The notes: generated by a model not told the origin, from the letters alone. A DNA stretch of 64,000 bases from an uncultured Elusimicrobia bacterium (GCA_903867985.1 CAIPTO010000083.1:20664-84663); one strand, 5' to 3'. Numbered from the stretch's first letter, positions 20,472-43,782 are shown. Made by a program: numbers and translations.

Positions 20472-22547
20472 ATGAGAAAAAAAATAATTCTGGCCATCCT
20501 GCTTGCCGGTCCCGCGTCTCCGGCGCGGGCTTACGACCTGCCTTCTTCCACAGGCACGCACAGGGTTGTGTTTTCATCCGAGTTGGGAGATTTTAACGAA
20601 AACACGCGGATCATAAATCTTCAGGGCAATGTTCAGCTGGACGAGCTGGGGCCGGATAATATGCTGGTGAAGACCATAAAGGCGGGACGCCTGACTGTGA
20701 ATTCATCCAGCAGTACGGTTTACGCTCCCGAGGACTTTGTGCTGAACGACACATCCGGCACGATCTCCGGTAAAAGCGGCTTATTTAACTATTCGGAGAA
20801 TACCGGCTATATAAACGACGCCCGTCTGAGCCAGAAGAATTTTTTCATTACAGGCAAACGGGGAGAGATGACCCCCACCCGCCAGATCTATAAAAAAGCG
20901 GAGTTCACTTCCTGCGAGGAGACCCCGCCCGATTATAAAATAAAGGCCTCGCGCGTCTACCTGGCACCGAATAAATATTTCCTGTCTTTTAATAACTTCT
21001 TTTATATCGGCCGGGTGCCTGTTTTATATTTCCCGGTGCTTTATAAGCCGCTCATACCCGGTACGCCTTTCGTGAGCGCATTCAATTTCGGCCATGACCA
21101 TCGGAGTGAATATTTCGTAAGGTCCAGCTATTCTTATCGATTCAATAATGAAACCAAAGGCAAGCTTTACCTTGATCACTTCGGAAAGCAGGGTTTCGGC
21201 ACCGGCGCGGAGGGTGATTATAGGAACGATAAGACCATCGCCAATATTTCCGCGTACCGCATACGCGAATACGGGACCTCTACCGATCGCTGGGGCCTGA
21301 ATGGGGGTTATTGGCGCCGCCTTGATCTGTTTCGCGGCATAGATTCGGCTTCATACTACAGCCAATCATATTTTCGACTGCTTTCCGACCCGGAATTTAA
21401 TAACGATTATTTCAGAACCAACCCTTTCGCCATCAGCCCCGACAGGCAGGCTAATCTGGCTTTTACCAGGACATCCAACACCACGGTCACACGGGTCAGC
21501 GCCGCCGTTCTTTACCAAGGCACGACCGATATGAAGCAATTTAGCAAAGCCTATGAAGCAACTCCCAGGCTGGATTTTCAGAAGTTGCCGTTCACTATAG
21601 CCAAGATACCTGTCCTTAATTCTTTCAACGGTTTTTTTGAGAGCGTAAAGGAGATCGGTGTGCCTTATTACCAGCGCAAAGCCGGCGGTACATGGACGAT
21701 TGCCAAGACGGTTCCGCTGCTCCACGGGGTAACCCTTGCGCCATCCGTTTTCTATAATCAAAGTCTTTATATTGCCACCAGCCCCCTCACCACTAATATC
21801 TGGACCGGGCGTTACGGAAGTAATGTAAACCTTCGTTATGACCGTCTTTTGGGTTCACTGGACCTTACCCATTCTTACCAAGTCCGTATGGCTATCAATC
21901 GCTTAGAACAGGACCGGAGAGCCGGTGATAAAGGGGAGGAAATAAATTCCTTATTTTCCCAGCTCTTTTTAATGCCGGTCTATAACACCTATTTTAAAAC
22001 TAATATCTCATATGATATGCGCTCGTGGGTGCGGGGCGCGGTTTCCAGGCGTCTTTCACCGCTTTTCGCGGAGTTGTACCATGCTCCGCGTAAAAATTTG
22101 AATATTTACATTCAGGATTCTTACATTTTTTCCGAAGGAAACAGCAGCCTTGTCGCCCAGGTTTACTCAGGCGACGAAAAAGATTACGTGGGGATGGGCC
22201 TGGCCAATTATAGCAACAAGCCTAATACATATGTGGTCAACCAGATGCTTGGTTTTCGTCTGCCATGGGCCAAGTCCTGGCGCGCCGAAAGTATTCTGCG
22301 GTGTGAGATCACGCGCTTTAACACGGACAGGGTCAGAAGCACCAGATTTTTTGAAAAAGGCCTCATCCTGTACAAAGATTTCCATGATTTTCACACGACC
22401 TGGTCCTATAAAGTCCGCAGAGGTGTGAAGGAATTCTTTTTTCTTTTAAGTCTGAAAAAGAGCGATCCTGCCAGACATGATTCGTTCGAGGACGCCTCAA
22501 GGAACTATTGGCACCCCTGGCGCAAAGAGGGGGATTTGAGGGACTAG
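20472..22547 (+). CDS. LptD/OstA-like outer-membrane LPS-assembly protein
   Basis: Signal peptide, N-terminal OstA-like beta-jellyroll pattern (INLQGNVQLDE ... TIKAGRLTVN ... GTISGKSGLFNY), then about 550 aa of amphipathic beta-strand sequence. This is a pattern-based assignment. Confidence 0.55.
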   Translation: MRKKIILAILLAGPASPARAYDLPSSTGTHRVVFSSELGDFNENTRIINLQGNVQLDELGPDNMLVKTIKAGRLTVNSSSSTVYAPEDFVLNDTSGTISGKSGLFNYSENTGYINDARLSQKNFFITGKRGEMTPTRQIYKKAEFTSCEETPPDYKIKASRVYLAPNKYFLSFNNFFYIGRVPVLYFPVLYKPLIPGTPFVSAFNFGHDHRSEYFVRSSYSYRFNNETKGKLYLDHFGKQGFGTGAEGDYRNDKTIANISAYRIREYGTSTDRWGLNGGYWRRLDLFRGIDSASYYSQSYFRLLSDPEFNNDYFRTNPFAISPDRQANLAFTRTSNTTVTRVSAAVLYQGTTDMKQFSKAYEATPRLDFQKLPFTIAKIPVLNSFNGFFESVKEIGVPYYQRKAGGTWTIAKTVPLLHGVTLAPSVFYNQSLYIATSPLTTNIWTGRYGSNVNLRYDRLLGSLDLTHSYQVRMAINRLEQDRRAGDKGEEINSLFSQLFLMPVYNTYFKTNISYDMRSWVRGAVSRRLSPLFAELYHAPRKNLNIYIQDSYIFSEGNSSLVAQVYSGDEKDYVGMGLANYSNKPNTYVVNQMLGFRLPWAKSWRAESILRCEITRFNTDRVRSTRFFEKGLILYKDFHDFHTTWSYKVRRGVKEFFFLLSLKKSDPARHDSFEDASRNYWHPWRKEGDLRD

Positions 22548-29542: not shown

Positions 29543-29737
29543 GTGATAAAAAGTATTTTAGCATAAAACGATTGCCGCATAATTAAACCGGCAGCCACTA
29601 TGCGCGCTTGGTCGGCAAGGGTGGCCGGCTTGATAACCATAGCTTCTGGTCCGGCACTACCATAGGTTTGTATGGCCGCAAAACGCGCTTTGTTATGCGG
29701 GGGAAAGGTTTAATTGAAACTCTCAGACTGATATCGG

Positions 29738-29766
29738 TTGACATGCGTGAAACGGATGCTTATAAT
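29738..29766 (+). promoter_or_regulatory. Perfect consensus sigma70 promoter for the FecR-OMP-giant protein-PorV-like locus
   Basis: TTGACA (29738-29743), 17 nt spacer, TATAAT (29761-29766). Predicted leader of about 145 nt before the ATG at 29920. Confidence 0.7.
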
Positions 29767-29919
29767 ACTAAGATAGGGTTGGGAATACAAGTTGAATTTA
29801 TAAATGCAATCGTGAATTACCGGAGCTTAAGCTCAGGCAATTGCCCCGATAAATATCAGGCTGGCGACGTATTGGCGTTTGTTAGTCGTATGAGGCTGAT
29901 GAAAGAGGTTTTAACACTT

Positions 29920-31356
29920 ATGAGATACATATCGTCATTATTTGTGATTATTGTTTTTGCCGGCTTTTCCTCAGCGGCGTATCTTTCCGGCTACCGGGGG
30001 GAGGTGAGCCTGAAAAAGACCGGGACCGCTGAATGGGTCAGGCTCAGCGAAGAGAAAAAAATTGAGTTAAACGAGGGCGATGAGATACGCACTGCGCGCG
30101 CATCTACCGTCGAGGTCTATATGGAAGACGGCTCCAGAATAAAACTGGCGCCGGTTACAGCTTTTAAAATGAGCGCCGAAAACAAAGATGTTGTTTCGTT
30201 GGGCCTTTACTTTGGCCGCGTCAGATCCTGGGTTAAGAAATTATCGCGTAAATTTGAAGTGCGCACTCCTTCCGCGGTCTGCGCCGTGCGCGGCACGGAT
30301 TTTATGGTTTATTCCGATGAGGGCGGCAACACCCGCGTAGAGGTATACGAAGGCACGGTTCTTGCCGGTGACGCCCATGGCCGCACAATACTTGTACGCC
30401 AGGGGGAATTTAGTGATATTCCGCGCGGCGGGAATGTAGGCGCTCCCAGGGGGCACTCAGGTTCGCCCTCCAATATGGATTCTTCAATCGGCGACGCGGT
30501 TACGATCGCCAGGAAGGAGATCTACGGTGAAATTTCCAAAGAGGACGTTATCTCCAGGGCCCAGCAGGAAATACAGTCCGCAGAATACCAGAACCGTAAA
30601 GTGGCGATAGACGCTTTCGGCAATCGCGTGCGCATGGAGGAGTATGTCATCCGTCCGGCGGCCGATCAGTTCAAGTATGTTGTTCTGAATACGCGCGCGG
30701 ATCGGTTCGACTTCGGGAAAATACTGTTCACTTTCGATAAGGCCCTGCCTGACGACCTTACGCTTGCCACCACCAACATGACCAGCTCCGCCTCACAGCC
30801 GGAGTGGGTGCTTACAGCGATGAATAGCGTCATGTCCAATACCATCGATAAGGTGACGGAGGACGCCTCCGGGGGAAAGATGGTCCCGGATAACGCCGCC
30901 AATCCGTCCGTGTGGACTCATTTCTTTCCCCAATATGCGGTTTACGCGGCAGGGCCTGCCGAGGCGGGCGATAACGGAGGCTTGGGCAAGAACCTTTGGT
31001 CTTATGCTGATCTGAACTCCGACAACGCCATTCAGTCCGGAGAGATGTCATTCCTGGGCGGCTCCGCGCCGGCCGGGGTTACCCTCTTTCCCGCCGGAGA
31101 GGATGTGTTCAATACCGTGATCAAGAATACTTACAGCGACGGCACCTGGATACAAGCCGCCGACTACGTAGTTTTTGATGACGGCAAAATTGTGAGCAAG
31201 GGGGATTTCGCCTCGCGGCTTGACGAAACCATGGACACTGTCACGGATAAGCTAAATTTTGAAAGGGTTTACACGAGCTCGCTTTTCGGCGGCCGCAAGA
31301 TAGATCTGGAATTCTCTGCCAAGCTCCTCAAAGACGCCGGACTATTGAGATTTTAA
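29920..31356 (+). CDS. Secreted FecR-domain protein with a C-terminal region of about 330 aa of unknown fold
   Basis: Start at ATG 29920 (AAGAGG RBS about 10 nt upstream; the consensus promoter lies inside the longer ORF call). Signal peptide MRYISSLFVIIVFAGFSSAAYL. FecR-type segment GEVSLKKTGTAEW...LNEGDEIRT...VRTPSAVCAVRGTDFMV...VYEGTV. No cytoplasmic anti-sigma domain. Confidence 0.75.
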   Translation: MRYISSLFVIIVFAGFSSAAYLSGYRGEVSLKKTGTAEWVRLSEEKKIELNEGDEIRTARASTVEVYMEDGSRIKLAPVTAFKMSAENKDVVSLGLYFGRVRSWVKKLSRKFEVRTPSAVCAVRGTDFMVYSDEGGNTRVEVYEGTVLAGDAHGRTILVRQGEFSDIPRGGNVGAPRGHSGSPSNMDSSIGDAVTIARKEIYGEISKEDVISRAQQEIQSAEYQNRKVAIDAFGNRVRMEEYVIRPAADQFKYVVLNTRADRFDFGKILFTFDKALPDDLTLATTNMTSSASQPEWVLTAMNSVMSNTIDKVTEDASGGKMVPDNAANPSVWTHFFPQYAVYAAGPAEAGDNGGLGKNLWSYADLNSDNAIQSGEMSFLGGSAPAGVTLFPAGEDVFNTVIKNTYSDGTWIQAADYVVFDDGKIVSKGDFASRLDETMDTVTDKLNFERVYTSSLFGGRKIDLEFSAKLLKDAGLLRF

Positions 31357-31434
31357 GTGACTGGTGTCGGGCGACGAGCGTGGAAAAACAGACTTCGGAT
31401 TTGTGGTCAACAATTATAGAAAGGGACTTTTTAT

Positions 31435-32682
31435 ATGAAAAAAACAAAGATCTCAGTCCTGAAAATATTCAGGTTTTTTATTCTTATCGCTCTTCCAGCT
31501 GCGTTGGCACCGCTGCCCCGCCTTTACGCACAGGTAAGGGTAATACCGGTGGCTAATATCTCTCTGATGGGAGGGAAATATTATCTGGACGATAAGGCGG
31601 CCTCTTTTCAGGGCAAGGCGGACGCTTTCATCTCGTCCGATATCAAGTTTTCGGAATCCAGCGATCTTATCCCGGTCTATTCAGGCTACTATAACGGCAC
31701 GCAGGATATTCAGGAGCTGGCCGGCGGCGGCGTACTGACGCGCAAGCGCCAGGGCCACACTTTTTCTTTGAAGTATGTGAATACCAGGGAGTTCGATAAA
31801 TATAAACCGCGGGTCTCGTATTCTAAAAATCTTATCAGCGAGACCAAAGATGAAAAATGGGGTGACGGTTTATTTGATTATGCCACCTTTTCGGCCGGCT
31901 TCGAAGCCGAGCAGGAGCGCCCGTATGGTACCTTCACCGAATCCTACGACTATTACTCGGTAAAGTATGGCAATTACGCCACACTGCTTTCCAAGTCGCA
32001 GACCGTTATCGACACCGCCACTTTCAACGAGCTTTCCGCTAACGCCGGAGCCAACACCATGGACAATGTGAACCACCGCCTGGGCTTCGCCTATACCTGG
32101 TTCCCGGACCCTTTGGTGCTGCAGGCCGGTTGCGATTTCACCTGGCGCGGCTATGGCGATCAGGCCGTGGTGTCCCGCCCGGTGGCCGGTTCGCCGTTCT
32201 TCAAGACCGACAAGCGATCAGACTTTCTTCAAAATGTCACTTTCAGGCTGACCCGCAATATCAAACCGCTGATGCTTTCTGTCGGCTCCCGCGTTTCTTA
32301 TTTAAGTTCGAATCAGAACTCGTATGACGCCTCCAGGACTAAGTTTATAGAGGATTATTACAGCTATGTGGAGTTCGGAGTTTCTCCGTCCATGAATTTT
32401 GCTTTCAAGAACGGCGCCATGTTCGGATTCTCGGTGGATTATTCAAAGCTTTATTACCTTGGCCGCCTTAAGCAGGATGACGCGGGCAATTATTCCAGGA
32501 CAAAGGCCAACCAGGACACCTGGCTTACCTCGCTTTCAGTCCGCTACCCGGTCATGAACAGGTTTTTCGCCCGTGCGGGGTACAATTACCAGATCGCAAG
32601 TTCCAATACGCGTTATGAGGCGAATTACAAATACAACTATCGGGCCAGTACTTACCTGATGGGTCTGGAGTGGGAGTTTTAA
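31435..32682 (+). CDS. Outer-membrane beta-barrel protein, family unknown
   Basis: Signal peptide, alternating hydrophobic beta-strand pattern rich in Y/S/N/G. C-terminal OMP signature ending in ...YLMGLEWEF. Confidence 0.6.
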   Translation: MKKTKISVLKIFRFFILIALPAALAPLPRLYAQVRVIPVANISLMGGKYYLDDKAASFQGKADAFISSDIKFSESSDLIPVYSGYYNGTQDIQELAGGGVLTRKRQGHTFSLKYVNTREFDKYKPRVSYSKNLISETKDEKWGDGLFDYATFSAGFEAEQERPYGTFTESYDYYSVKYGNYATLLSKSQTVIDTATFNELSANAGANTMDNVNHRLGFAYTWFPDPLVLQAGCDFTWRGYGDQAVVSRPVAGSPFFKTDKRSDFLQNVTFRLTRNIKPLMLSVGSRVSYLSSNQNSYDASRTKFIEDYYSYVEFGVSPSMNFAFKNGAMFGFSVDYSKLYYLGRLKQDDAGNYSRTKANQDTWLTSLSVRYPVMNRFFARAGYNYQIASSNTRYEANYKYNYRASTYLMGLEWEF

Positions 32683-32778
32683 ACAGAGGGCTGGGAACTG
32701 ATAATTAAGTTCGGTCAGACCTTAAAAACATACGGCTTGCAGTCTGCGGCTTATGCCGGGTATTTTTTAGGAGAAATT

Positions 32779-35700
32779 ATGTTTAACATTAGAAAAAATA
32801 TTTTAACTCTGACGACCGCGGCCGGTCTCTGGGCCGGATTGATCGGAAGCGCCGGAGCCGTTGCCACCCTTCCCCCGAGCGGGCTTAGCGTGGTAAGCGG
32901 CGATTATAACGGTTCCGTGAATCTATCCTGGAACGCGCCGGAAGCGCTTGCGGGAGGTAAATTTTACATTCAGTACAGCACTACGAACGGTCCATGGATC
33001 TCTACCGGTTCGGCGCAGATCGTCATAACCACTGCCACTATCGGGGCTCAGAGTATGCGCGTAAGCGGTCTGGAGTATGGCCGTAATGGCTCCGACCCCG
33101 CTTTCATATACTACTTTCATGTCTGGATAGAAAACACCGGCATCGTTTCCGCCCCTGTCACATCGGTTTCCGCTATTCCTTTGACCCCGGCCGCGCCTTC
33201 CACAGGCGTTTTGGCGCTGGCTGCCGGCTCTGTGCTATCCATAAACTCCCAGGGAGGCGGCTACGGATCCAAGCTTGCCGTAGACTCGTCCGGGAATTAT
33301 TACGCGCTTGCTTCCATGATGTTTTCATCATCAACCACGGGCACCGGTGGGACGAACTCATCGTCAGCCATAGCCCTGATAAAATTTTTACCGTCCGGCG
33401 CCGTGTCGTGGTACCGCGCGTACAACAGCACGATGAGTCTCTCCGGTTCGGATTGGACCAATGATCAGGCTACCGCCATGGCTCTCGGTTCGGACGGGAA
33501 CCTGATCATAGCCGGTAGGATAGATAAAGGCGCTAATGTCATGTTAAGGAAGTACACCGCCAACGGAGATATCTTGTGGACGAGGCTAATTGCGGCGGAT
33601 ATGTCCAGCAATAGCCGCATCAACGCTATTTCCATAAATTCCTCTACCGAGATATATACCGCAGGCGAGAAGTATTCCGGCACCGGGAATCTGTGGCTGG
33701 CAAAATTTAACAAGGATGGCGTCCAGCAGGGAGCGAACGCTTTTTATTCCAACGCGCAGTCCGGTTCATACGCCGGCAACGGGATAGCGTTGTATGGGGG
33801 GTATATTTATGTGGTCGGCACCAGGAATGTCCGCAACAACGACGACATCTTTGTGGAGAAATATGGAGATACCTGGCCCACGGTCCCGACACAGATCGGA
33901 GCGGTTACCGCAGGCGGTCCCAATTACGACCAGGGAAAGGGGATAAAGATAGACGCTTCGGGTAGCATTTTTGTGACAGGCGCGTATTATAGTTCCGCCA
34001 CGTATAATAATGCCTGTTGGACCGCTAAGTACGATTCCTCGCTTGTTCAGCAATGGCAGGACCTTTATTCCTACAGCGGTAATATGGCCTCCGGCGCGGC
34101 GCTGGAACTGGATCTAACCGGCAACGCTTATATTACCGGCAGTGAATATCGTAGCGACATATACCAGGGTGGCAATCTTTTGCTGCTGAAATATTCACCT
34201 GGCGGCGCGCGCCTGATGGTTCGCAGCGTGGACTACAATAAGGGTTATGAAGAAGGTTACGACGTTAAAGTGTCCAGCCTGGGCGTGATTTACGCCGTCG
34301 GAAGTTTCCCGAACGTGAACATGGGAACGAGTGTGAGCAGCCTGGGGATATATAAACTGGATATGACTTCGTCATCCTCCGGGCTTCTGGCCGACAAGGG
34401 CCCTTTCACCGGTTCCGTGAACCTGAGCTGGCTCTACCCGGCCGCCATGCCTGCCGGTTCCAAGTATTATGTTCAGTACAGCACTTTTTACAGTGTAAAC
34501 TGGTCCACGGCCTCCGCGGCAGAGTTCCCCATTAATGCCGCCGTCTCCGCTTTGTCGGCGCAAACCCACACGGTAGGCGGCCTGCAGGCCGCCCGCGGCG
34601 CCCTGAACAATATCAGCTCGCCTGTATATGCGTTTAGGGTCTGGTATTATAACGGAACAACTCTTACCGCCCTGCCCAACCTTGCTACTGCCTACACTAA
34701 CGTCCCCACCGCTCCGACAGAGAGCGTGATCACCAGTGCGGACGGTAATTTGCTCAAGCAGCTGGACGGCACGCCCGTCATGGGCTGGACCTCCGGCCCT
34801 TCCTTGGCCCGTGATAATGCCGGCAATGCCTATATGCTTTTTAGCGCAAATTTAGGCGTGGCCAGAGCTGATAACGCGGGTATCGCTCTCAGGAAATACA
34901 ATCCCTACGGTACACTTCTCTGGACCCGCTTCTATCACGGCGAACTTTCCGCCACCTATAACGCTTCCGCCATAGCCGCGGACGCGGACGGCAATATTAT
35001 AATAGCCGGCGAGGAGAACGCGCCCTCGCTGGAACAGGGTGACAATATCTGGGTCAGTAAGCTGGACTCCGACGGCAACCAGATCTGGACCAGAATTTAT
35101 GACGGCGCCGGTCATGGCGACGACTCCGTCAAAGCCGTGGCAACAGACGTTTCCGGAAATATTTATGTTACCGGCAAAGTTGAGGGTGCTTCCGGATCAG
35201 ATCTCGTTGTGATAAAATACACCGCGGCCGGCAGTCCTACGGCGCAAACCTATGATGGCGGCTCGACCGATGAAGGCACGGCTATAGACGCGGGAGCAGA
35301 CGGTTTCGTTTATGTGACCGGTAAATCCATGATCAACGCGTCTGGAGCGGATCCGGCCCATTATAGAATGATTTTCATTAAGTATAATTCTTCCCTTGCG
35401 TTTTCCTCAACCTGGACCAATAATCCTTTCTTTTACGAGTATCGCGCTGACAGGGATAATATTCCCTACGCCGTAAAGGTTTCTACGTGGGGCGACATCT
35501 ATGCCGCCGGTCAGGTATATGTTATCGGCTCCGATCTGCTGGATGCCTGGGCTGCCAGGATATCTCCGGCCGGTGTTATTACTTCCACTTCCGCTTCCGG
35601 CGCCGCCAGCGAATTCAGAGCGCTCACAATTTCCACCGCGACCGGAGAGGTCTTTGCCGCCGGCCGCCAGATATATCCCGTAGAAACGTTATGGTTCCAG

Positions 35701-38700
35701 AAACTAAACCCCTCTGACGTGAGTTACATGTGGAGCAAGAAGTTCCCTAATATCGGTCTGACCGGGCCTATATCCCCCGTGAATATCGTTATAGACAGCC
35801 GGGGGGACTTCAGCCTGAGCGTGATTATTTCCACCACGGTCAGCAGCCAGCCCGGTAGTTTTAAATTCAGTTCGCCGGCGGCGGCTATGTCCGCTGGTGT
35901 CACCGCGATCACTGGAACCGTGCCCGGCGGCGCGGAGCTATCCTGGGTCACCGGCGTCGCTCTGCCGGCCGGAACCTCTTATTATGTGCAGGCCAGCACC
36001 TGGAATGGCGGCTGGGATTTCGCCCTCGCGAAGCAGTCTTATCCGTCCCCCTACCAATATCAGCCACAGGCGTATACCGAGGGTTCGCTTGTCCGCATCA
36101 AAGCAGGTGATCTCACCGCCGGCCGCGACGCGCGGGGCAATACAACAGCGCCTTACTATTTCAATGTCTGGTACTATGCGGGCGGCGTCAGTACCACTAC
36201 GGTAACCGGTAATCCCTCAGCTCTGCCGAATATCCCAGTGATTTCAGAGACTTCCTACCCATACCCGCTCGGGCAGCTTTACCTGACCACGGGTCTCAAC
36301 ACCACCAGTCCGGTCAAAATGGTCCGTGCCGTTTCGGGAGATATCTATCTTGCCATCCAGACCTATTCCTCACAGGGCGACGCCTCATCTTCCGTCATCC
36401 TCAAAAAGTATAACCTGAGCGGCGTTTTGCAGTGGGTGCGCTATTATTTCTCGGGCAACGGCAGCGGCCTGCGTGCCTTGGCCAGCGACGCTTCCGGTAA
36501 TGTTTACATTTCCGGTTCCGGAAGGGACGCTGCCGGGACCAATCCATATATCGCAAAGTATTCCGACGCCGGAGAATTGCTCTGGTCCCGGACCATTCCT
36601 TCACGCGGAGCTTATGAGGATTTCAGCGGCTTAACGGCCGCGTCCGACGGAAGTATCTATCTGACCGGGCAGTACAACGCGGTAAGTTCAGGCGCGAATA
36701 TCTCCAGTGGCGCCGCTCTTCTGGCCAAGTATTCTCAGGCCGGAGTCCTGCTGGCTTCCTCAACGTATAGCGGGAGTTACAACTCTGTCCGGGCCGTTGG
36801 GATAACCTATAACGCGGTTGACGGCAATCTTTATGTGTCAGGCCAGGCGGGCATAAACACCTCCACAGCCTGCTTCTGGGTAGGAAAGTTTGACACCGGC
36901 CTGACATTCGTCGCAGATAAAAAATACTGTCCTTCCGCGCCCTATGGTTATTCATCCGGCAACACTATCAAAGTTGACGCTGCCGGCAGCATCTATGCCG
37001 CCGGCAGCGTTTATGACCAGTACCAGTATGACAATATGTTTATTGTGAAACTCACCCCGGCTCTTTCTGAGGTCTGGTCCAGCACCTACAATTCACCGGC
37101 CAATTCCTACGAATCAATACAGGGCCTTGCGGTGGACACGAGCAGCGGTGCGTATGTCAGCGGCTACGAGAACCGCAGCGACCTTAATCAGGGGTATAAC
37201 CTTTTCTTCAGGAAATACAATACCGGAACCGGCGACATAGTCTGGACCAATACTTTTAACAGTTCCGGGAACTCCTACGAGTATGCCGATGACATAGCCG
37301 TGGACTCATCCGGTTTCGTCTATGTGCCGGGCAGCTATAGCTATGGTGTTAATTACCAGTACGCCGCCGGCTATTTCAAATATAAACAGTTCAGCACTTC
37401 CGCCACCAATCCGATTATCACCGCATCCGTTAAATATAACGGGAGCAGCACGCCGCTGAAGGACGTGAATGTGATTTTGTTAGCGTTTAATCAGACGGGG
37501 GGGATGGACCCAGCCGGCATCCGGGTCAGCGCCACGGACGCCAACGGCAGATTCTCGGCCGCCGTGCCGGGCGGTTTAAAGTATTTTATCGGCCTTTCCA
37601 CACCCGGCTATGTGCCTACCGTAAAGGACCAATTAATGGATCCCAGCGGCAATTTTTACCTTACGCTCAACAGTGATACCACGAGAGAATTCTCTCTTTA
37701 TCCACGTGCGGCCTCTGACCCGATAAGCACACTGACCGTCAATGTTTCCGAGGGCCTGACGCCCGGTGACTTTCTGATGGGCGAGGTTTCAGTCAACAGG
37801 ACCGGAGAAAAAGTAGCCTACGGTGTATTGGCGGCCAGCGCCCCGGCCGGCCAGCTCCAGATTTTCAACGTGCCGTCCGCTCCGGCCGGAACCTACGGCG
37901 TGGCTTTGAGCGTACCCGGGAAGAATAAGTTCCTGAATTTTTTCCTGGACACAGCCTTTCCGGCCGATTCGGTTTACACGGTCAACATGTCCAGCGCTAT
38001 TTCTTCCAGCGGCGGTTTTGACACCTCCGGTTCCACCGTTCCTCCCTCTTTTCAGGGCGTAGTGCGCAGCAGTCCGACCATGGTTCCGTTGGAGGGCGCA
38101 AGGATAGAATTATTCATAAATCAGTGTTCCGGGGCCAACACCTGTTCCAAAGCGATTAGCTATGAGAATCTTACCGACGTAAACGGCCAATTCAGTTTCT
38201 ATAATCTCCCTTCCACTTCCACGCCGTATAATGTGAATGTTAAGAAACAGGGCTCGCGCAGCTGGTTTGACATGATCATGATCTCAAGCATGCCGGCGGG
38301 CGCCAATACAGCCGCTGCCGTGGCGCAGTACCGCGAGTACGCACTTTTCCCGGCCACTTATACTTTAACCGGCCTGATCAAATATAACGGTATACCCGTA
38401 CCCAACGCCCGAGTCATGGTCTACGGCGACTGGGCCACCGGCTCCGGGGACGATTCCTATTCCGGTTATTGGGACGGGGCCATGCAGAGCGACGCCCAGG
38501 TTCGCACCGGGGCGGACGGTTTATTTACCGCTGAAGGTCTGCCGGACGGCCGCGTGCGTGTGAATATGGACTTTATGGGCAACTGGCGAGACCTGAATAA
38601 CGGCCCGGATGGTACCAACGGCAACTCTGACGACTTGAAGATAATAATTTCTTCCGCCGGGGCCACCGGTCCCAGCGAGCCGGGAGGCAATCCCTGCCTG

Positions 38701-41700
38701 CCCGGGGCCAATTGGATACTTGACAGCGCCGGTGCCTGCCAGTCCGCCGGTCTTGTGACGTTCAATCTGACTCCGGACAGCGGCAACACCGCCGGCACCC
38801 TTTCCGGCACGGTGATTTTTGTCACCACCTATACGGTCAGCGCCGAAATGCCGCTGGTCGTGCCGGCGGAGTCGCCAGTCACCATCATGGCCACACAGTA
38901 TTGCGAGGGAGGTAACTGCCAGAACCGGCAGATGGGGTTCGCCTCAATCTCCGGCGAATTCACCAGCAACGCTACCACCTATTCGGTTACGCTTTCTACC
39001 GGCTTCTCTTATTACGCCAGCGTTATGTCCGGTGAATGGGGGAAGATGTCCAACTTCAACGACCGGGTCGACCTGACTTCCGCTACCACCGCCGCCATGG
39101 ACTTCACCCTGACCCGCTCCGGCGCGCTGCGCGGGGCTGTCAAAATGCCCGACGGCACCAGTTTCAAGCCCGTCTACAGTGTGGCCAGTGACGATCCCGG
39201 ATATATGACCGCCAGTATAGATGTGCGAGGCGTTAATGTTCAGTATAACTCCGGCACCGGCCTGGATGAATTCGGAAATTTTGAATTCCCTAACCTGCCG
39301 CCCGGCCTCTATAATGTCTACCTCAGGCCGCAAGGCGGGGCTTTCCGCTGGCCCCCCGCGGAAGTGGAGAATGTGCGTGTCACGCTGGGAAATACTACTG
39401 AGGTCAAGATAAAACTGAATGACGGTCTGACGGTACAGCCGCAGATCATCGGTCTGCAGGCGCTTTCAACGGCTACCTGGAGCTATACGGTTCTTGGCGT
39501 GCCTTCCGGTTTTCAGATGAATCAGAAGAATATCACCGAGATGTTCTTCGAGCAGCCGCAGTATTCCTTCAGCTACGACGCGGATTCCGCCAGCTGGGAT
39601 AAAAAGTTCATGGAGCCCGGGCAATACGACTTCTACCTGGTCGTAGGCGTCAATTATGATTGCGGCAAAAGCGTCGGGGCGAGTTGCGACCAGTTCGCCA
39701 CATTCATCGGCCGTGTGAAAAATGTCTCCATACAGAAAGATCCCAATAACGCGAATCTCGGTACCCTTACCCAGCCTATCCCTATAAATATTAAGGGCTC
39801 CCTGGGCCAGGCGGAGATGAAGGGCCGGGTTATTGGCGATAAGATATTCACGGCCGGAGATTTTGAGAAGATATTCTCTAACTTCGACTCGGAGATAATG
39901 GGCATCATTCCGGCCGTCATGCTGTACGATAATGCCGGCGATCTGAGGGCTTTTACCAACGCCATGCCGGATGCGGTCGGTCTGGTAGGGTTCGAGAGCG
40001 GCCTTAAAACCCGCAGTACGACCACCATCATAAATTCGCTTGCCGATAATCCTCTGCGCTACATGGCTTGGGGGCTGCCTCCGGGCAGGTATACCGCTGT
40101 TTATGTTAACCCTAATTATCCGCCCGTAACCGCGGATGTGACCCTGCCCAGGTCCGGTTCGGAGGAGACCACCCCCTTCGACTTCGACGCCCAGAAAAGT
40201 GTCGTGGGCACGATCCACGGTGTGGTGAAGAGCTCCGAGGCTGTCTCCTCGTTCGTGGGGAATGCTCTGGTCCGCCTGAAGCACAGGACTGTGGAAAAAT
40301 TCGTCGTAACCGATTCCTCCGGCGCCTATAGATTTTCAAACCTGCCCACCGGCATCTACAGGCTGGAAGTGACCCGGGATGGATTCGTAACCGTAGGTCA
40401 GAAAACCAGTCTCGCCGGTAACGACGAGGCGGAATTCAACTTCTTTATGCGGCCTTCCGAATCGAAGATAACCGGCAAAATTTACATGAGTAAGTTCCCG
40501 GCTCCGGTTACCAGGGCCGGGGTCAAGATAGTGGCATACGACGAGACCATGAATGTGGAAGCGCCGTCTTCCTATCTGCCCAAAATGGAAGTCCAGACTG
40601 ACGATGCCGGCTATTATGAGGTTCATGGCGTCATACCTGGCCATAAATACAAGCTTTCCGCCATGTTCAGCGGCAAAATGCCGGAAATAGTGGATGTCAA
40701 CGACGCGGCGGACGGCGTAACCGTGCTGGACGACATCGTGCTAAGGGATATCCCGCCGCAGATCATGGTCAAAGTGCGCCGGAATGCGGATTCCGTCAAC
40801 AAGGTAAATGTGGAAATACGCAGTCCGAGAGAACTGATCTCTACGCCGGTGTGCAAATACAACGCCGGTGATACTTACGAGGCGGCTTCCGCGGATGACA
40901 CTGTATGCGCTTCTACATCGGCGGTCATCCTCACGCTGGAGCTTGGCCCCGATAATACGTATCTGGGAGAGTTTACTGTCTCGCGGAACCAGCCGACTTA
41001 CAGCGTCTGCGTGTCGGCGGGGGACAATAATAAAATGAAAAAAGTTGTGGTGTACGACCAGGTCAGCGACGCCAAAACAGAGCAGTACATACAGGAAGAG
41101 GCCCTGGCCGGAGGCGAGATCAGCATGGATAAGGAAAAAGAGGAATATTCCGGCATGGAGCTTGACGCCGGTACTCTGTCCTATTCCACTTCTTCGGTTT
41201 CCGATGTCAATTTTCAGGACCTGGTCGGCGGCTTCTTCAGCGCCCTTCCCTCGGTTCGGACGGTAAAGACGGCCAAAGGCAATCTGAGCATTGAGGCGTC
41301 CCTGCAGGACTTGATGGCATCTGAAGTCTACAATATGGACCTTTCTAACGCCGATGTCAATAAGCCGTTCACCCTCACGCTGAAGTATGACAAAGAGCGG
41401 GTGATAAGTACCGGTAACCTTCGGATCTACCAGTATGACGAAGTCTCCGGCCAATGGAAGGAAGTTCCCGGCAACTATACCGTGGACCCGATGTCCGGAG
41501 TGATCGCGGTTGACATCGTTAATCTTAACTTCGCCTACGAAGGCACCGGCGGTTCCAATACCCCTCTGGGCCGCAAGCACTTCAAGATGAGCGCGGTGAG
41601 CAACGGGCGTTATGTTACCCGCGCGGCGCCAGCACTTCAGACCGGCAAATTCGCGGTGTTCACCGCCAAGCCCGGCAGCGGTGTGGCATACGCCGGTTCG

Positions 41701-42072
41701 TCGTACGAGGTTTACAATATGCCTAATCCGTTCAACCTTAAAGATAAGAACGTTACCATAAGCGCTGACGGCGGAGCGGCAATAGCCGCAGGGGCGCATA
41801 CCGTTAGGGGTACTATTATAAAATACCATCTTCCCGCCGGAAAATCAGGTGATCTTAAGTTTGTGATCTATAACCTGGCCGGAGAAAAGGTCAGGACCAT
41901 AGATGAAGGCGTCCGGACGATAACCACCGGCAGCGGAGAAGTGTTCTATTCCGAATGGGACGGAAAGAACGACACCAACCAGGATTGTGCTTCCGGCGTT
42001 TACTTCATGCTGACCTACCTTGACGGCAAGAAGCTGGGTAATAAGGTGCATAAGATGGCGATAATTAAATAG
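32779..42072 (+). CDS. Giant secreted surface protein: 3 x (FN3-like cap + SBBP beta-propeller) + CarboxypepD_reg-like array + T9SS-type C-terminal domain
   Basis: ATG 32779 behind AGGAG. Signal peptide MFNIRKNILTLTTAAGLWAGLIGSAGA. See the domain sub-features. 3097 aa from this start. Confidence 0.85.
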   Translation: MFNIRKNILTLTTAAGLWAGLIGSAGAVATLPPSGLSVVSGDYNGSVNLSWNAPEALAGGKFYIQYSTTNGPWISTGSAQIVITTATIGAQSMRVSGLEYGRNGSDPAFIYYFHVWIENTGIVSAPVTSVSAIPLTPAAPSTGVLALAAGSVLSINSQGGGYGSKLAVDSSGNYYALASMMFSSSTTGTGGTNSSSAIALIKFLPSGAVSWYRAYNSTMSLSGSDWTNDQATAMALGSDGNLIIAGRIDKGANVMLRKYTANGDILWTRLIAADMSSNSRINAISINSSTEIYTAGEKYSGTGNLWLAKFNKDGVQQGANAFYSNAQSGSYAGNGIALYGGYIYVVGTRNVRNNDDIFVEKYGDTWPTVPTQIGAVTAGGPNYDQGKGIKIDASGSIFVTGAYYSSATYNNACWTAKYDSSLVQQWQDLYSYSGNMASGAALELDLTGNAYITGSEYRSDIYQGGNLLLLKYSPGGARLMVRSVDYNKGYEEGYDVKVSSLGVIYAVGSFPNVNMGTSVSSLGIYKLDMTSSSSGLLADKGPFTGSVNLSWLYPAAMPAGSKYYVQYSTFYSVNWSTASAAEFPINAAVSALSAQTHTVGGLQAARGALNNISSPVYAFRVWYYNGTTLTALPNLATAYTNVPTAPTESVITSADGNLLKQLDGTPVMGWTSGPSLARDNAGNAYMLFSANLGVARADNAGIALRKYNPYGTLLWTRFYHGELSATYNASAIAADADGNIIIAGEENAPSLEQGDNIWVSKLDSDGNQIWTRIYDGAGHGDDSVKAVATDVSGNIYVTGKVEGASGSDLVVIKYTAAGSPTAQTYDGGSTDEGTAIDAGADGFVYVTGKSMINASGADPAHYRMIFIKYNSSLAFSSTWTNNPFFYEYRADRDNIPYAVKVSTWGDIYAAGQVYVIGSDLLDAWAARISPAGVITSTSASGAASEFRALTISTATGEVFAAGRQIYPVETLWFQKLNPSDVSYMWSKKFPNIGLTGPISPVNIVIDSRGDFSLSVIISTTVSSQPGSFKFSSPAAAMSAGVTAITGTVPGGAELSWVTGVALPAGTSYYVQASTWNGGWDFALAKQSYPSPYQYQPQAYTEGSLVRIKAGDLTAGRDARGNTTAPYYFNVWYYAGGVSTTTVTGNPSALPNIPVISETSYPYPLGQLYLTTGLNTTSPVKMVRAVSGDIYLAIQTYSSQGDASSSVILKKYNLSGVLQWVRYYFSGNGSGLRALASDASGNVYISGSGRDAAGTNPYIAKYSDAGELLWSRTIPSRGAYEDFSGLTAASDGSIYLTGQYNAVSSGANISSGAALLAKYSQAGVLLASSTYSGSYNSVRAVGITYNAVDGNLYVSGQAGINTSTACFWVGKFDTGLTFVADKKYCPSAPYGYSSGNTIKVDAAGSIYAAGSVYDQYQYDNMFIVKLTPALSEVWSSTYNSPANSYESIQGLAVDTSSGAYVSGYENRSDLNQGYNLFFRKYNTGTGDIVWTNTFNSSGNSYEYADDIAVDSSGFVYVPGSYSYGVNYQYAAGYFKYKQFSTSATNPIITASVKYNGSSTPLKDVNVILLAFNQTGGMDPAGIRVSATDANGRFSAAVPGGLKYFIGLSTPGYVPTVKDQLMDPSGNFYLTLNSDTTREFSLYPRAASDPISTLTVNVSEGLTPGDFLMGEVSVNRTGEKVAYGVLAASAPAGQLQIFNVPSAPAGTYGVALSVPGKNKFLNFFLDTAFPADSVYTVNMSSAISSSGGFDTSGSTVPPSFQGVVRSSPTMVPLEGARIELFINQCSGANTCSKAISYENLTDVNGQFSFYNLPSTSTPYNVNVKKQGSRSWFDMIMISSMPAGANTAAAVAQYREYALFPATYTLTGLIKYNGIPVPNARVMVYGDWATGSGDDSYSGYWDGAMQSDAQVRTGADGLFTAEGLPDGRVRVNMDFMGNWRDLNNGPDGTNGNSDDLKIIISSAGATGPSEPGGNPCLPGANWILDSAGACQSAGLVTFNLTPDSGNTAGTLSGTVIFVTTYTVSAEMPLVVPAESPVTIMATQYCEGGNCQNRQMGFASISGEFTSNATTYSVTLSTGFSYYASVMSGEWGKMSNFNDRVDLTSATTAAMDFTLTRSGALRGAVKMPDGTSFKPVYSVASDDPGYMTASIDVRGVNVQYNSGTGLDEFGNFEFPNLPPGLYNVYLRPQGGAFRWPPAEVENVRVTLGNTTEVKIKLNDGLTVQPQIIGLQALSTATWSYTVLGVPSGFQMNQKNITEMFFEQPQYSFSYDADSASWDKKFMEPGQYDFYLVVGVNYDCGKSVGASCDQFATFIGRVKNVSIQKDPNNANLGTLTQPIPINIKGSLGQAEMKGRVIGDKIFTAGDFEKIFSNFDSEIMGIIPAVMLYDNAGDLRAFTNAMPDAVGLVGFESGLKTRSTTTIINSLADNPLRYMAWGLPPGRYTAVYVNPNYPPVTADVTLPRSGSEETTPFDFDAQKSVVGTIHGVVKSSEAVSSFVGNALVRLKHRTVEKFVVTDSSGAYRFSNLPTGIYRLEVTRDGFVTVGQKTSLAGNDEAEFNFFMRPSESKITGKIYMSKFPAPVTRAGVKIVAYDETMNVEAPSSYLPKMEVQTDDAGYYEVHGVIPGHKYKLSAMFSGKMPEIVDVNDAADGVTVLDDIVLRDIPPQIMVKVRRNADSVNKVNVEIRSPRELISTPVCKYNAGDTYEAASADDTVCASTSAVILTLELGPDNTYLGEFTVSRNQPTYSVCVSAGDNNKMKKVVVYDQVSDAKTEQYIQEEALAGGEISMDKEKEEYSGMELDAGTLSYSTSSVSDVNFQDLVGGFFSALPSVRTVKTAKGNLSIEASLQDLMASEVYNMDLSNADVNKPFTLTLKYDKERVISTGNLRIYQYDEVSGQWKEVPGNYTVDPMSGVIAVDIVNLNFAYEGTGGSNTPLGRKHFKMSAVSNGRYVTRAAPALQTGKFAVFTAKPGSGVAYAGSSYEVYNMPNPFNLKDKNVTISADGGAAIAAGAHTVRGTIIKYHLPAGKSGDLKFVIYNLAGEKVRTIDEGVRTITTGSGEVFYSEWDGKNDTNQDCASGVYFMLTYLDGKKLGNKVHKMAIIK
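32869..34369 (+). other. Giant protein module 1: FN3-like cap plus SBBP beta-propeller repeats
   Basis: Cap: GSVNLSWNAPEALAGGKFYIQYST...YYFHVWIEN. Blades: DSSGNYYALAS, GSDGNLIIAGR, SSTEIYTAGE, GGYIYVVGT, DASGSIFVTGA, DLTGNAYITGS, SSLGVIYAVGS. Confidence 0.65.
34370..35880 (+). other. Giant protein module 2: FN3-like cap plus SBBP beta-propeller repeats
   Basis: Cap: GSVNLSWLYPAAMPAGSKYYVQYST...YAFRVWYYN. Blades: DNAGNAYMLFS, DADGNIIIAGE, DVSGNIYVTGK, GADGFVYVTGK, TWGDIYAAGQ, ATGEVFAAGR. Confidence 0.65.
35881..37400 (+). other. Giant protein module 3: FN3-like cap plus SBBP beta-propeller repeats
   Basis: Cap: GGAELSWVTGVALPAGTSYYVQAST...YYFNVWYYA. Blades: VSGDIYLAIQ, DASGNVYISGS, ASDGSIYLTGQ, VDGNLYVSGQ, DAAGSIYAAGS, DTSSGAYVSGY, DSSGFVYVPGS. 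Confidence 0.65.
37410..40700 (+). other. Giant protein: array of at least six CarboxypepD_reg-like (prealbumin-fold) domains
   Basis: Recurrent pattern G.V....G.P...A.V.L........TD..G.F.F..LP.G.Y.L. Examples: ATDANGRFSAAVPGGLKYFI, LTDVNGQFSFYNLPSTSTPY, TGADGLFTAEGLPDGRVRV, DEFGNFEFPNLPPGLYNVYL, TDSSGAYRFSNLPTGIYRLEV, TDDAGYYEVHGVIPGHKYKL. Confidence 0.6.
41704..42069 (+). other. Giant protein: T9SS type A sorting / FlgD-Ig-like C-terminal domain
   Basis: YNMPNPFNLKD...LKFVIYNLAGEKVRTI...EWDGKNDTNQDCASGVYFMLTYLDGKKLGNKVHKMAIIK. This matches the PNPF ... IY(N/D)xxG(R/E)xV ... WDG ... SGVY ... K pattern of Por-secretion-tail domains. Confidence 0.65.
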
Positions 42073-42214
42073 GGCTGCTGGTCGGTGAGTTTTAGAGTTA
42101 AGAGTTTTACAAGTTGCGGAGTTGAGGATTGTGTGTTGACTGCCGCGCTTCGGGCGAATCCTGACTGGGGGATTCGGAATCCGGGTAATGGATATTTTGC
42201 TGAAGAGGTAATTT

Positions 42215-43144
42215 ATGAAGAAAACACTATTTTTAGTGCTGACGCTGGCTTTGCCGGCTGGCGCTTACGCTTCGGGGGCCGGCACTACCGCCGCCCCGTT
42301 CCTGAAAGCTGCAATGAGCCCCAGGGCCGTGGCTATGGCTGGCGCATTCAGTCCGCTGGCCAACGATTCCGGCGCGGTCTTCGTGAATCCGGCCGGTCTG
42401 GCCCAGTTCGATAACAGGGAGGCGGGCGTGGACTTCACCAACTATTTTCAGGACGCCAAGATGGGGAACTTTTCTTACGCCGGTGAGATCGCCAATAACC
42501 GCTTCGGGTTTGGCGTGACGCTTATGAATGTTCCCGGAATAGAGAGGCGTTCCAACACTGACTCCGTGGGCGTGGTGCCGGATATCGGCTCATTCGATTC
42601 CAACGACCTGGCCGTTTCTCTGGCCTATGCCAGGAAGAATGTCTTCCCGGGCGCGTTGGACAATCTTGACGCGGGCGTGACTATCAAATTCATCCGCTCG
42701 TCCATAGATGATAATAACGCTTACGCCTTCGCGACGGACGCGGGTGCTATTTATCATGCCACTGATAAAATGAATTTTTCTCTGGTGATGCAGAACCTCG
42801 GTACCGGGATGAAATTTGAAGACGTCTCAGATCCGCTGCCCCTCAGCCTTAAAACCGGAATGCTTTACAAACTCTCTCCCCGGCTTAACCTCACCGGTGA
42901 GCTTGGGGAATATTTTAGAGATGAAAAGTTCTATCCCGCCTTTGGGGCTGAATACTGGTTCCGTGATTCTTTTGCGCTTCGCGGCGGATATAAGTTCGGC
43001 TATGACACCGTAAACCTCGGAGCCGAGGTCGGTTTGAGTCTGGGTTTCGGTCTTAAAGTAGCTGGTTTAGGGGTGGACTACGCCTATCTGCCATTCGGCG
43101 ATCTTGGCAATATTCACCGTTTCGGTTTTTGGATGCAGTTCTGA
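42215..43144 (+). CDS. PorV/PorQ-family-like outer-membrane beta-barrel
   Basis: Signal peptide, then the family-typical N-terminus GAGTTAAPFLKAAMSPRAVAMAGAFSPLANDSGAVFVNPAGLAQF. A barrel of about 290 aa ending in ...IHRFGFWMQF. Confidence 0.6.
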   Translation: MKKTLFLVLTLALPAGAYASGAGTTAAPFLKAAMSPRAVAMAGAFSPLANDSGAVFVNPAGLAQFDNREAGVDFTNYFQDAKMGNFSYAGEIANNRFGFGVTLMNVPGIERRSNTDSVGVVPDIGSFDSNDLAVSLAYARKNVFPGALDNLDAGVTIKFIRSSIDDNNAYAFATDAGAIYHATDKMNFSLVMQNLGTGMKFEDVSDPLPLSLKTGMLYKLSPRLNLTGELGEYFRDEKFYPAFGAEYWFRDSFALRGGYKFGYDTVNLGAEVGLSLGFGLKVAGLGVDYAYLPFGDLGNIHRFGFWMQF

Positions 43145-43152: not shown

Positions 43153-43782
43153 TTATTTTAAAAAATCCTGGTTAGGCCAATCGCTCGGCTGGCCTTCTAT
43201 CGAGACCAACCTGGCATCCTCGTTGGAGAGGGCGCTCATTTTTTGGAATGATTCCCTGAGCTCTGTCAATGATACATCCAGACGTTTTATTTTCATAAGG
43301 ATGATATAGGTTACCACCGCCATTGCCAGGGATAGCGGCAGAATAAGCATCCATGTTGAGGATTTCAGGCTCATGAGTATGCAGGCGCACAGAAAAACCC
43401 AGTAGCTCAGGGTGGCGCTGGCCCCGGCGAGTATATAGGCGATGATGATATTGTGTTCCTCGTTCCTGGGCAGGGAGAGCAGGATCACTATCAGGGCTAT
43501 ATCCATTATCAAAAGGTATACCGCCCGGGCCACCCAGCTTTTCCAGCGGCTTTTGGAGACCATGAATACGCCTCTGACCGAATCGTTTATCAATTCCGCG
43601 TCGTCGTAATCCACGGAAACAATTTCTTTTAGGACCTGTGATGCTTCATCGCCGGGGGGTGTGTAGTCGAAAGCCTGCTGTTTTGCGTCGCTATCGTATT
43701 GGGCCGCGGCAGGCAGAGCGGCGGCAAAGAACGGGAGCGCGAGAGTGAGCGCCAAAAAAACTCGGTTAATTCCCATTATCAA
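43153..43782 (-). CDS. Hypothetical membrane protein (signal peptide + 3-4 TM)
   Basis: MIMGINRVFLALTLALPFFAAALPAAAQ leader and hydrophobic helices (VYLLIMDIALIVILLSL; IIIAYILAGASATLSYWVFLCACILM; MLILPLSLAMAVVTYIILM). No recognisable family. Confidence 0.5.
   Translation of the reverse strand: MIMGINRVFLALTLALPFFAAALPAAAQYDSDAKQQAFDYTPPGDEASQVLKEIVSVDYDDAELINDSVRGVFMVSKSRWKSWVARAVYLLIMDIALIVILLSLPRNEEHNIIIAYILAGASATLSYWVFLCACILMSLKSSTWMLILPLSLAMAVVTYIILMKIKRLDVSLTELRESFQKMSALSNEDARLVSIEGQPSDWPNQDFLK

Follow-up and report, generated by a model that had tools for sequence, protein, structure and literature searches.

What unites four neighbouring genes when one of them encodes a protein of 3,097 residues and two others encode proteins with little or no resemblance to known families? 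This question is raised by a locus in a 64,000-nucleotide stretch of DNA from an uncultured Elusimicrobia bacterium (GCA_903867985.1 CAIPTO010000083.1:20664-84663), which is referred to below as the window and is numbered from its first letter. Between positions 29738 and 43144, a promoter is followed by genes for a secreted FecR-domain protein (g1), an outer-membrane beta-barrel (g2), the giant protein (g3), and a second barrel of the PorV/PorQ family (g4). We favour the reading, to which an even chance of being correct is given, that this is a conserved and strongly transcribed operon of the Elusimicrobiota, encoding an abundant giant surface protein together with a dedicated outer-membrane apparatus.

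The four genes lie on the plus strand at 29920-31356 (g1, 478 aa), 31435-32682 (g2, 415 aa), 32779-42072 (g3, 3,097 aa, read from the translation), and 42215-43144 (g4, 309 aa), and the gaps between them are 78, 96, and 142 nt long. Each gene is preceded by a Shine-Dalgarno sequence, which is AAGAGG before the ATG of g1 at 29920, and a simple sequence scan of the three gaps returned no terminator-like site. The mechanical open reading frame (ORF) of g1 extends to 29608 at its upstream end, and the protein is 553 aa long in public gene calls; the start was set at the ATG at 29920 because the orthologues are approximately 470–506 aa long and begin with MRY. The N-termini of all four products look like Sec signal peptides without a lipobox, as judged by inspection, and the N-terminal helices in the AlphaFold2 (AF2) models agree. 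The two barrels end in an aromatic residue (EWEF in g2 and WMQF in g4). In all these respects, that is, the arrangement of four same-strand genes with short gaps, the signal peptide on every product, and the aromatic ends of the barrels, the initial annotation of the locus proved to be accurate.

Related genomes indicate how firmly the genes belong together. One genome per GTDB species was scanned; 215 contained a relative of g2, and 80 loci were taken for the study of synteny. In all 64 loci with enough sequence, g1 stands directly upstream of g2, and a large ORF follows g2 in 65 of 69. Giants that end inside their locus number 34, and every one of them ends in the same C-terminal domain (CTD) and is then followed by a homologue of g4. 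The order is giant-g1-g2-g4 in L070 and g1-g2-g4 in L071, where not enough sequence is available 5' of g1 for a giant to be seen. In L009, g2 and the giant are separated by a gap of approximately 1 kb, and no large ORF was found in the 1.7 kb examined after g2 in L077. Ten loci (L009, L013, L014, L016, L037, L039, L041, L044, L051, and L055) carry a second, diverged four-gene set immediately upstream, at about 1-8400 in locus coordinates, in the order g3'-g4'-g2'-g1'. Hidden Markov models (HMMs) recognize g4' as PorV/PorQ (164.1 bits) and g1' as FecR (64 bits), and g2' matches g2 only. The joint duplication of all four genes speaks for a single barrel pair and a single FecR protein belonging to each giant, and it argues against g1 and g2 being general housekeeping porins. 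A chance neighbourhood was considered and rejected on the basis of the synteny statistics and the co-duplication. The functional link that had been drawn between the four genes from the window is thus supported by the near-invariant FecR-barrel-giant-PorV order across the 80 loci, by the co-duplication in ten of them, and by the conserved promoter described below.

The module appears to be a feature of one lineage. Across much of the order, g1, g2, and g4 are approximately 60–73% identical, and among the matches listed, the homologues with a named source are nearly all labelled Elusimicrobia, most entries carrying no name. Homologues and related loci are labelled Elusimicrobia or Elusimicrobiota with few exceptions, which places the host outside the FCB (Fibrobacterota, Chlorobiota, and Bacteroidota) superphylum. 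The few homologue records under other or generic labels are probably misbinned. Contigs with an orthologous cluster are also found in metagenome-assembled genomes (MAGs) labelled Clostridia, Deltaproteobacteria, and Candidatus Sumerlaeota (L061, L069, and L073), and in one locus labelled Endomicrobium trichonymphae (L085), both strands carry long overlapping ORFs, usually a sign of a high G+C content. The labels of these four loci are likely binning or labelling errors. Near-identical copies of the proteins are named 'PorV/PorQ family protein', 'FecR family protein', 'carboxypeptidase regulatory-like domain-containing protein' (the name of the 96%-identical copy of g3), and 'hypothetical protein' at NCBI. 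As these labels refer to single proteins, the parts are already annotated, and the system is without a description.

Which of the four products can be related to something known? The clearest case is g4. It scores 168.3 bits against the PorV/PorQ family model NF033709 (cut-off 90) and matches the PorV chain of Flavobacterium johnsoniae (6h3i_F) with E = 1.2e-5, so the earlier description of a PorV/PorQ-like barrel is upheld. Among the narrower models, it is closest to PorQ (NF033711, 123.2 bits, cut-off 220), followed by PorV (NF033710, 64.6 bits, cut-off 250) and PorV2 (61.5 bits, cut-off 325), yet by these cut-offs, it is an equivalog of neither PorQ nor PorV. Toluene_X (PF03349) is matched at 19.1 bits, with a cut-off of 29.7, and UPF0164 is also matched weakly. 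There are 371 homologues, and the best 120 of the 371 are 41–94% identical, mostly 60–73%. Three relatives (P0398, P0410, and P0474) are 435–437 aa long and have extra Pfam matches to PF05635 and PF22296, which we take to be four-helix-bundle families (23S rRNA intervening-sequence protein and bAvd-like). They are probably gene calls fused with a small downstream gene.

The presumed counterpart of g4 is the CTD of the giant, at 41713-42069 on the plus strand (residues 2979-3097). It contains, in order, the motifs PNPFN, IYNLAGEKV, WDGKN, and ASGVYF and a terminal KMAIIK, and roughly the last 90–120 residues of the giant show conservation in all orthologues and paralogues alike. When 12 representative CTDs were each scanned alone, FlgD_ig and CHU_C were matched by all of them, as were the PorZ and PorU models at their extreme C-terminal ends, with a best E of 2.9e-12 for the end of PorZ. 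Ten match the type A sorting domain TIGR04183 (best E 2.5e-6), and the CTD-like tail that had been suspected for the giant is supported by these scans. A search of the PDB with a single CTD sequence was uninformative; a profile performed better and retrieved the immunoglobulin (Ig) domains of FlgD and, weakly, the C-terminal ends of PorU (6za2) and PorZ (5m11). In approximately 1.4 Mb of related DNA, a sample biased to the neighbourhood of these loci, the CTD profile was found only on large proteins beside PorV/Q-like genes.

The body of the giant consists of two different halves. The N-terminal part, at 32878-37458 (+), is composed of three tandem modules of approximately 500 aa (residues 34-530, 534-1035, and 1039-1560), in each of which an FN3-like segment is followed by an SBBP-type beta-propeller. 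These modules were revealed by BLAST in chunks, with matches to the SBBP and LipL53 families, and a self-comparison of the whole protein by BLAST returned no internal repeat. From about residue 1541 to 2978, at 37399-41712 (+), there is a core of Ig-like beta-sandwich domains, comprising CarboxypepD_reg/transthyretin-like domains and other Ig-like beta-sandwiches. Two pieces of this core found no match among PDB sequences, and neither the domain scans nor these searches revealed a catalytic or carbohydrate-binding domain. The initial annotation had described a multi-propeller protein of roughly 3100 residues. The size is correct, but the propellers occupy only the N-terminal half, and the C-terminal half is an Ig-like array. 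Conservation is strongly polar. Across 18 full-length orthologues, residues 1-1500 are 18–35% identical to the window's protein, and residues 1600-3097 are 45–70% identical, with values climbing toward the C-terminus. Minimal orthologues of 1,547–1,690 aa, the 1,547-aa giant being that of L040, align only to residues 1541-3097 or so and are without the head, and the giant of the second set likewise aligns only to this part. For this reason, the conserved unit can be defined as the core plus the CTD, and the propeller modules appear from the alignments to be a variable, expandable head. Such polarity fits anchoring at the C-terminus, with the N-terminus directed outward.

The other barrel, g2, is of a different kind. 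Its AF2 model (pLDDT, i.e., predicted local distance difference test, of 87) is a barrel of 16 long strands, in which short turns face one side and long loops the opposite one, and it has neither a periplasmic domain nor an N-terminal signalling domain or a plug. In the PDB, the fold resembles generic barrels only (TM-score of at most 0.46), and the g2 profile matched no PDB sequence. Scans of g2 alone against Pfam and NCBIfam gave no match at E <= 0.1, and no recurrent Pfam match was found among 61 members of the family; POTRA and Omp85 were absent from the matches in these scans, and the PorP/SprF model TIGR03519 was not matched by g2. An exhaustive profile search of 1.84 billion proteins gave 513 cluster representatives, which form a compact family among the 150 best matches listed. 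Exact copies occur on metagenome contigs, and the best named match, 96% identical, comes from an Elusimicrobiota MAG. The invariant residues cluster in loops L3, L4, L6, and L8, which would be extracellular if the standard barrel topology applies. The beta-barrel of unrecognized family that had been reported is thus confirmed, and, judged by these searches, g2 appears even on a conservative reading to be a new outer-membrane protein family restricted to the phylum.

Only half of g1 is familiar. The protein comprises a signal peptide, a FecR domain (residues 20-167 or so), two linker helices (193-218), and a beta-rich C-terminal domain (223-478). It scores 66.8 bits against Pfam FecR (PF04773, cut-off 24), and in the AF2 model (pLDDT 87.7), Foldseek superposes the FecR domain on its periplasmic counterparts in BDI_1681 (4m0n) and PupR (6ovk) with E ~1e-6; the secreted FecR-domain protein of the initial annotation is therefore secure by both HMM and fold. 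There is no anti-sigma domain and no transmembrane helix, and the score against the FecR equivalog model NF007296 is 14.6 bits, with a cut-off of 385. The C-terminal beta-rich domain of 255 residues found no fold match in the PDB with Foldseek, and the g1 profile found nothing useful among PDB sequences beyond the FecR domain. Homologues of g1 number 264, and the best 120 of the 264 are 48–100% identical. Even if the rest of the interpretation is left aside, the C-terminal domain of g1 is a new periplasmic protein family with a defined genomic partner. Residues 49-91 or so (about 30064-30192) match a LapA-type retention module in NCBIfam weakly (E = 0.0097), and the N-terminal part of the FecR domain matches the cell-surface anchoring domain 5ix9 in Foldseek (TM-score of 0.74 on the target, over 69 columns). 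These two matches might hint at a plug-like role in a barrel, but they are too weak and were left unused.

Expression of the locus can be addressed through its promoter. At 29738-29766 (+), there is a sigma-70-type promoter with TTGACA as the -35 element (29738-29743), a spacer of 17 nt, and TATAAT as the -10 element (29761-29766), so that all 12 of 12 consensus positions agree, exactly as had been noted. It is the sole perfect match to TTGACA-17-TATAAT in the window, and when up to one mismatch is allowed, there are two matches compared with 0.17 expected from shuffles. The second of these, TTGACA-17-TAAAAT at 11219-11247 (+), lies approximately 450 nt upstream of rho, inside the dephospho-CoA kinase gene. 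Across 65 related loci, the best -35/-10 pair 5' of g1 agrees with the consensus at 12/12 positions in 20 and at 11/12 in 17, i.e., in 37 loci altogether, and it is usually located 65–80 nt ahead of the start codon. Random 360-nt windows from the same loci reach at least 11/12 in 1.8% of cases, which is about the chance of their overlapping the promoters themselves. The comparison between these two frequencies indicates that the promoter is real and conserved. Judged by its consensus, it should be strong, and the four genes are presumably co-transcribed from it. In four loci with a second set upstream (L013, L014, L037, and L041), the spacer and -10 element of the main operon lie inside a perfect hairpin followed by a T-run, an apparent terminator of that second set. 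The 5' leader of the window (29767-29919, +) is about 153 nt long, roughly twice the length in most relatives, and this length is shared by the window and its 96% relative. Its predicted fold is no more stable than that of shuffles (z = -0.11), the region 3' of g4 is likewise without stability beyond shuffles, and an Rfam scan of the window, leader included, gave no match.

Upstream of the -35 element, many orthologous loci contain a CRP/FNR-like palindrome at a fixed distance of 9–11 nt, in the forms TGTATCCAAAGTCACA, TGTGCCTAAAGTTACA, and GTTAC-N-GTAAC variants (L005, L009, L020, L022, L024-L026, L030, L032, L033, L038, L043, L045, L048, L056, L065, and L071). A score of at least 7/10 against TGTGA-N6-TCACA was reached in 33 of 48 loci versus 12% of shuffled controls. 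The palindrome is not present at 29688-29737 of the window. It suggests, as a sequence motif, an activator of the cyclic nucleotide (cNMP) or redox type in many lineages, though not for the window itself.

The surroundings of the four genes are of a general nature. On the 5' side, divergent genes encode a polyprenyl synthetase, UbiA, Pal, a YbgF/CpoB-like TPR protein, and TolB; on the 3' side, convergent genes encode a 209-aa membrane protein and valyl-tRNA synthetase (ValRS). The remainder of the 64-kb window consists of housekeeping genes, and core genes of the system for type IX secretion (T9SS) were found neither in the window, in agreement with the initial annotation, nor in the annotated flanks of four related loci. 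The 209-aa ORF (43153-43782, -) resembles a signal peptide at its N-terminus, contains hydrophobic segments in the C-terminal half, matches nothing in Pfam or NCBIfam, and has its stop codon 8 nt from that of g4. Its position is kept only in L012, L040, L047, and L058. It was considered as a fifth member (g5) and rejected, as it is convergent and conserved in only these four loci. Farther away, at 20472-22547 (+), a 691-aa secreted protein without a Pfam match is, by eye, possibly an outer-membrane protein. In L005, a 693-aa gene, also without a Pfam match, occupies the same place relative to an epimerase gene.

How could these parts work together? In the favoured reading of a docking operon, the products of g1–g4 would cross the inner membrane via Sec. 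The C-terminal Ig-like domain of the giant would then stay bound to the g4 barrel, so that the giant would be held on the surface. This step is modelled on the type IX attachment complex of Porphyromonas gingivalis, where PorU and PorZ are reported to be attached to the cell's surface through PorV and PorQ, respectively (PMC5562754). There, as seems to be the case here, a surface protein keeps its C-terminal Ig-like domain as an anchor and is partnered by a 14-strand barrel of the PorV/PorQ family. Moreover, among the narrower models, that of PorQ gives g4 its highest score, and the C-terminal ends of PorZ and PorU give the CTD of the giant its highest. By this analogy, docking of the CTD to g4 is proposed, and of all the steps, it has the best support from homology. 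The differences are that g4 falls under the equivalog cut-offs, that the cargo here is a propeller/Ig protein of 3,097 aa, that this pair shares an operon with two additional proteins of unrecognized families in a phylum outside FCB, and that SprA, the PorU sortase, and PorK/L/M/N were not found at the window. The Ig-like core of approximately 1,550 aa would serve as a membrane-proximal stalk, and the fast-evolving FN3 and propeller modules would constitute an exposed distal head.

The g2 barrel and periplasmic g1 may form a second complex of the outer membrane and periplasm that is specific to the giant. Most likely, it would dock or assemble the base of the giant, and it may also help to move the giant across the outer membrane. 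The analogy here is with type B CTD cargo, which binds its own PorP-like barrel, with periplasmic PorE as the third partner (PMC9143113). The PorP-PorE-PG1035 system is a tripartite combination of a barrel, a periplasmic partner, and a CTD surface protein, and in SprF-SprB, a giant adhesin of F. johnsoniae is held by a barrel of its own (PMC9143113); the CTDs of the present family also give weak matches to CHU_C, a type B model. Unlike in these systems, g2 does not match TIGR03519, g1 is a FecR-domain protein and not PorE, and an additional PorV/Q-type barrel, g4, is present. It had been stated that no characterized system combines these parts. In view of PorQ-PorZ and PorV-PorU, on the one hand, and PorP-PorE-PG1035 and SprF-SprB, on the other, this statement needs correction, since all of them are close precedents.

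Several points weigh against the docking operon. The window's own CTD is below each curated cut-off (TIGR04183, 15.5 vs. 23; FlgD_ig, 24.1 vs. 27; CHU_C, 16.9 vs. 27), so its membership holds at the superfamily level only. In the same way, g4 is below the equivalog cut-offs of both PorQ and PorV, and its partner specificity is therefore a guess. Since neither g2 nor the C-terminal domain of g1 bears a resemblance to anything known, their role is read from the position of their genes. The contacts between g3 and g4, between g1 and g2, and elsewhere in the scheme are those that we infer. Finally, the module as read does not explain export: a 16-strand barrel is too narrow for folded propellers and could pass an unfolded chain only. 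Canonical CTD cargo is exported folded through SprA/Sov, which is needed for this purpose and is not in the window.

The problem of export leads to two of the alternatives. One of them holds that the giant is an ordinary T9SS cargo, that a complete T9SS (SprA/Sov, PorK/L/M/N, and PorU) is encoded elsewhere in the genome, and that g1 and g2 are lineage-specific accessories. We consider this possible but unlikely. The CTD and g4 genuinely belong to superfamilies associated with the T9SS, transport through SprA suits folded propellers better than a 16-strand barrel does, and some genomes (L063, L067, and L072) have more than one CTD-PorV/Q pair, as is the case with a general sorting system. However, organisms with a T9SS typically carry a diverse set of CTD cargo, and in the neighbourhood-biased 1.4-Mb sample, every CTD ORF was large and stood beside a PorV/Q-like gene. 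The core genes are missing from the regions examined, i.e., the window and the four annotated flanks, and nothing relevant was found in the literature searched for Elusimicrobia with T9SS or FecR. According to a 2024 review, T9SS genes are absent outside the FCB phyla (PMC11285876), to which Elusimicrobiota do not belong. That report also speaks for the other alternative, in which a new, self-contained, and T9SS-independent export route is present, with g2 as the conduit, g1 as a periplasmic adaptor, the giant threaded largely unfolded, and g4 capturing the CTD. This view is rather doubtful. It would account for the strict coupling of g1 and g2 to each giant and their duplication with it, for the restriction of g2 to Elusimicrobiota, and for the fact that the conserved C-terminal half of the giant adjoins the anchor. 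The 16 strands of g2 also equal the number in TpsB transporters. Nevertheless, g2 has no POTRA/Omp85 signature and the giant no two-partner secretion (TPS) domain, the invariant loops of g2 may plug its lumen, the T9SS recognizes Ig-like CTDs in a folded state, and the cluster is without a gene for an energy source or a chaperone. Two-partner secretion itself was rejected, as g2 lacks POTRA/Omp85 and the N-terminus of g3 is FN3-like and propeller-forming. Of the proposal in the initial annotation that a self-contained module exports and anchors the giant, the link between the four genes stands, and self-contained export is hypothetical, as nothing marks g1 or g2 as a translocon. That g2 and g1 deliver a giant CTD protein that a PorQ-like barrel then locks in place, all without a T9SS, is given a small chance only. 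If it were true, the locus would represent an unrecognized route of secretion or attachment, or a minimal relative, possibly a precursor, of the type IX attachment complex outside the FCB superphylum. If T9SS core genes are present elsewhere in the genome, the locus encodes ordinary T9SS cargo along with accessories specific to the lineage; if there are none, either g2 and g1 are a new conduit or another system exports the giant.

The FecR domain and the regulatory sequences raise a further possibility, namely that g1 and g2 act in surface signalling, as a FecA/FecR-like relay that reports engagement of the giant to inner-membrane CHASE2 cyclases and cNMP-dependent transcription, in place of a structural role. 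There are precedents for secreted FecR-domain proteins as partners of CHASE2 sensors in Burkholderia and as targets of cAMP/Clr in Sinorhizobium (PMC5192318, PMC5498481). The superposition of the g1 FecR domain on the signalling domains of PupR and BDI_1681 agrees with this idea, as does the frequent CRP/FNR-like palindrome, and in one sub-lineage, a CHASE2 adenylate/guanylate cyclase gene stands directly upstream of g1 (L007/L073, L064, L067, and L068). L072 probably has such a cyclase as well; only a neighbouring CTD protein and a PorV/Q-like ORF were detected there. In L067, the cyclase gene is preceded by genes for a TPR/HEAT protein, a fusion of a PorV/PorQ-like barrel with TPR (500 aa, with a PorV/PorQ score of 79.9 bits, below the cut-off of 90), and an Ig-rich CTD protein of the FlgD_ig type. 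As in FecA-FecR and PupB-PupR, a FecR periplasmic domain, recognized by HMM and fold, is encoded beside an outer-membrane barrel. Unlike those systems, g1 has no anti-sigma domain, transmembrane segment, or STN-like subdomain and has the novel 255-aa beta domain in place of the latter; g2 has 16 strands and no plug or N-terminal signalling domain, and no gene for an extracytoplasmic function (ECF) sigma factor was found among the neighbours. A classical FecIRA system was rejected on these grounds, given that g1 starts with a signal peptide, lacks an anti-sigma domain, and has no sigma gene nearby. Both the CHASE2 cyclase and the CRP-like site are, moreover, absent from the window, and signalling leaves the one g1/g2 pair per giant and the very strong, constitutive-looking promoter unexplained. 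It is improbable as the core function, and the cyclase and palindrome evidence is treated as a regulatory layer or a minority rival. Still less can be said for nutrient capture by a utilisome-like assembly, where the giant would bind a polymer or hydrophobic substrate and a FadL-type g4 channel and a g2 porin would import the products. Its indications are the weak matches of g4 to FadL/Toluene_X and UPF0164, the JGI (Joint Genome Institute) name 'long-subunit fatty acid transport protein' on some g4 homologues, and a weak SusE-like segment in a related CTD protein of L067. They are set against a Toluene_X score of 19.1 (cut-off 29.7) versus 168 for PorV/PorQ, a giant in which the domain scans detected no catalytic or carbohydrate-binding domain, and a cluster without a TonB-dependent or inner-membrane transporter, so this explanation is very improbable.

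Two other systems resemble the docking operon in part. The S-layer proteins TfsA and TfsB of Tannerella forsythia are secreted by the T9SS, need the full system, and have their CTD removed by the PorU sortase. Like the giant, if it is as abundant as its promoter would suggest, they are large, abundant coat proteins with a CTD; unlike it, they have no dedicated barrel or FecR partner encoded alongside. In the BAM (beta-barrel assembly machinery) complex of Bacteroidota, BamG-BamH offers a possible parallel in that BamG, a FadL/PorV-like barrel of 14 strands, is a pillar for an extracellular protein, the surface canopy protein BamH, but this pair is part of BAM, is conserved in FCB phyla, and has no CTD cargo (PMC12611786).

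The locus presents what is probably docking of the T9SS type, between a CTD and a PorV/PorQ barrel, outside its known phyletic range and in association with two new protein families. Barrels of the PorV/PorQ kind and CTD cargo are regarded as hallmarks of the T9SS that are confined to FCB. In the sampled Elusimicrobiota, they make up a conserved module, which invariably includes two partners without known relatives and is sometimes present as two diverged copies. A locus that takes up approximately 13 kb in often small genomes, behind a near-perfect and conserved promoter, is likely to encode a major structure of the cell surface in a phylum that has been little studied. An orthologous cluster (L066) was found in a MAG labelled Elusimicrobium minutum, and this cultured species may permit experiments. 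If the core genes of the T9SS are truly absent, CTD-barrel docking would work without the T9SS translocon, which would bear on the evolution of the T9SS and on the way in which diderm bacteria display very large proteins.

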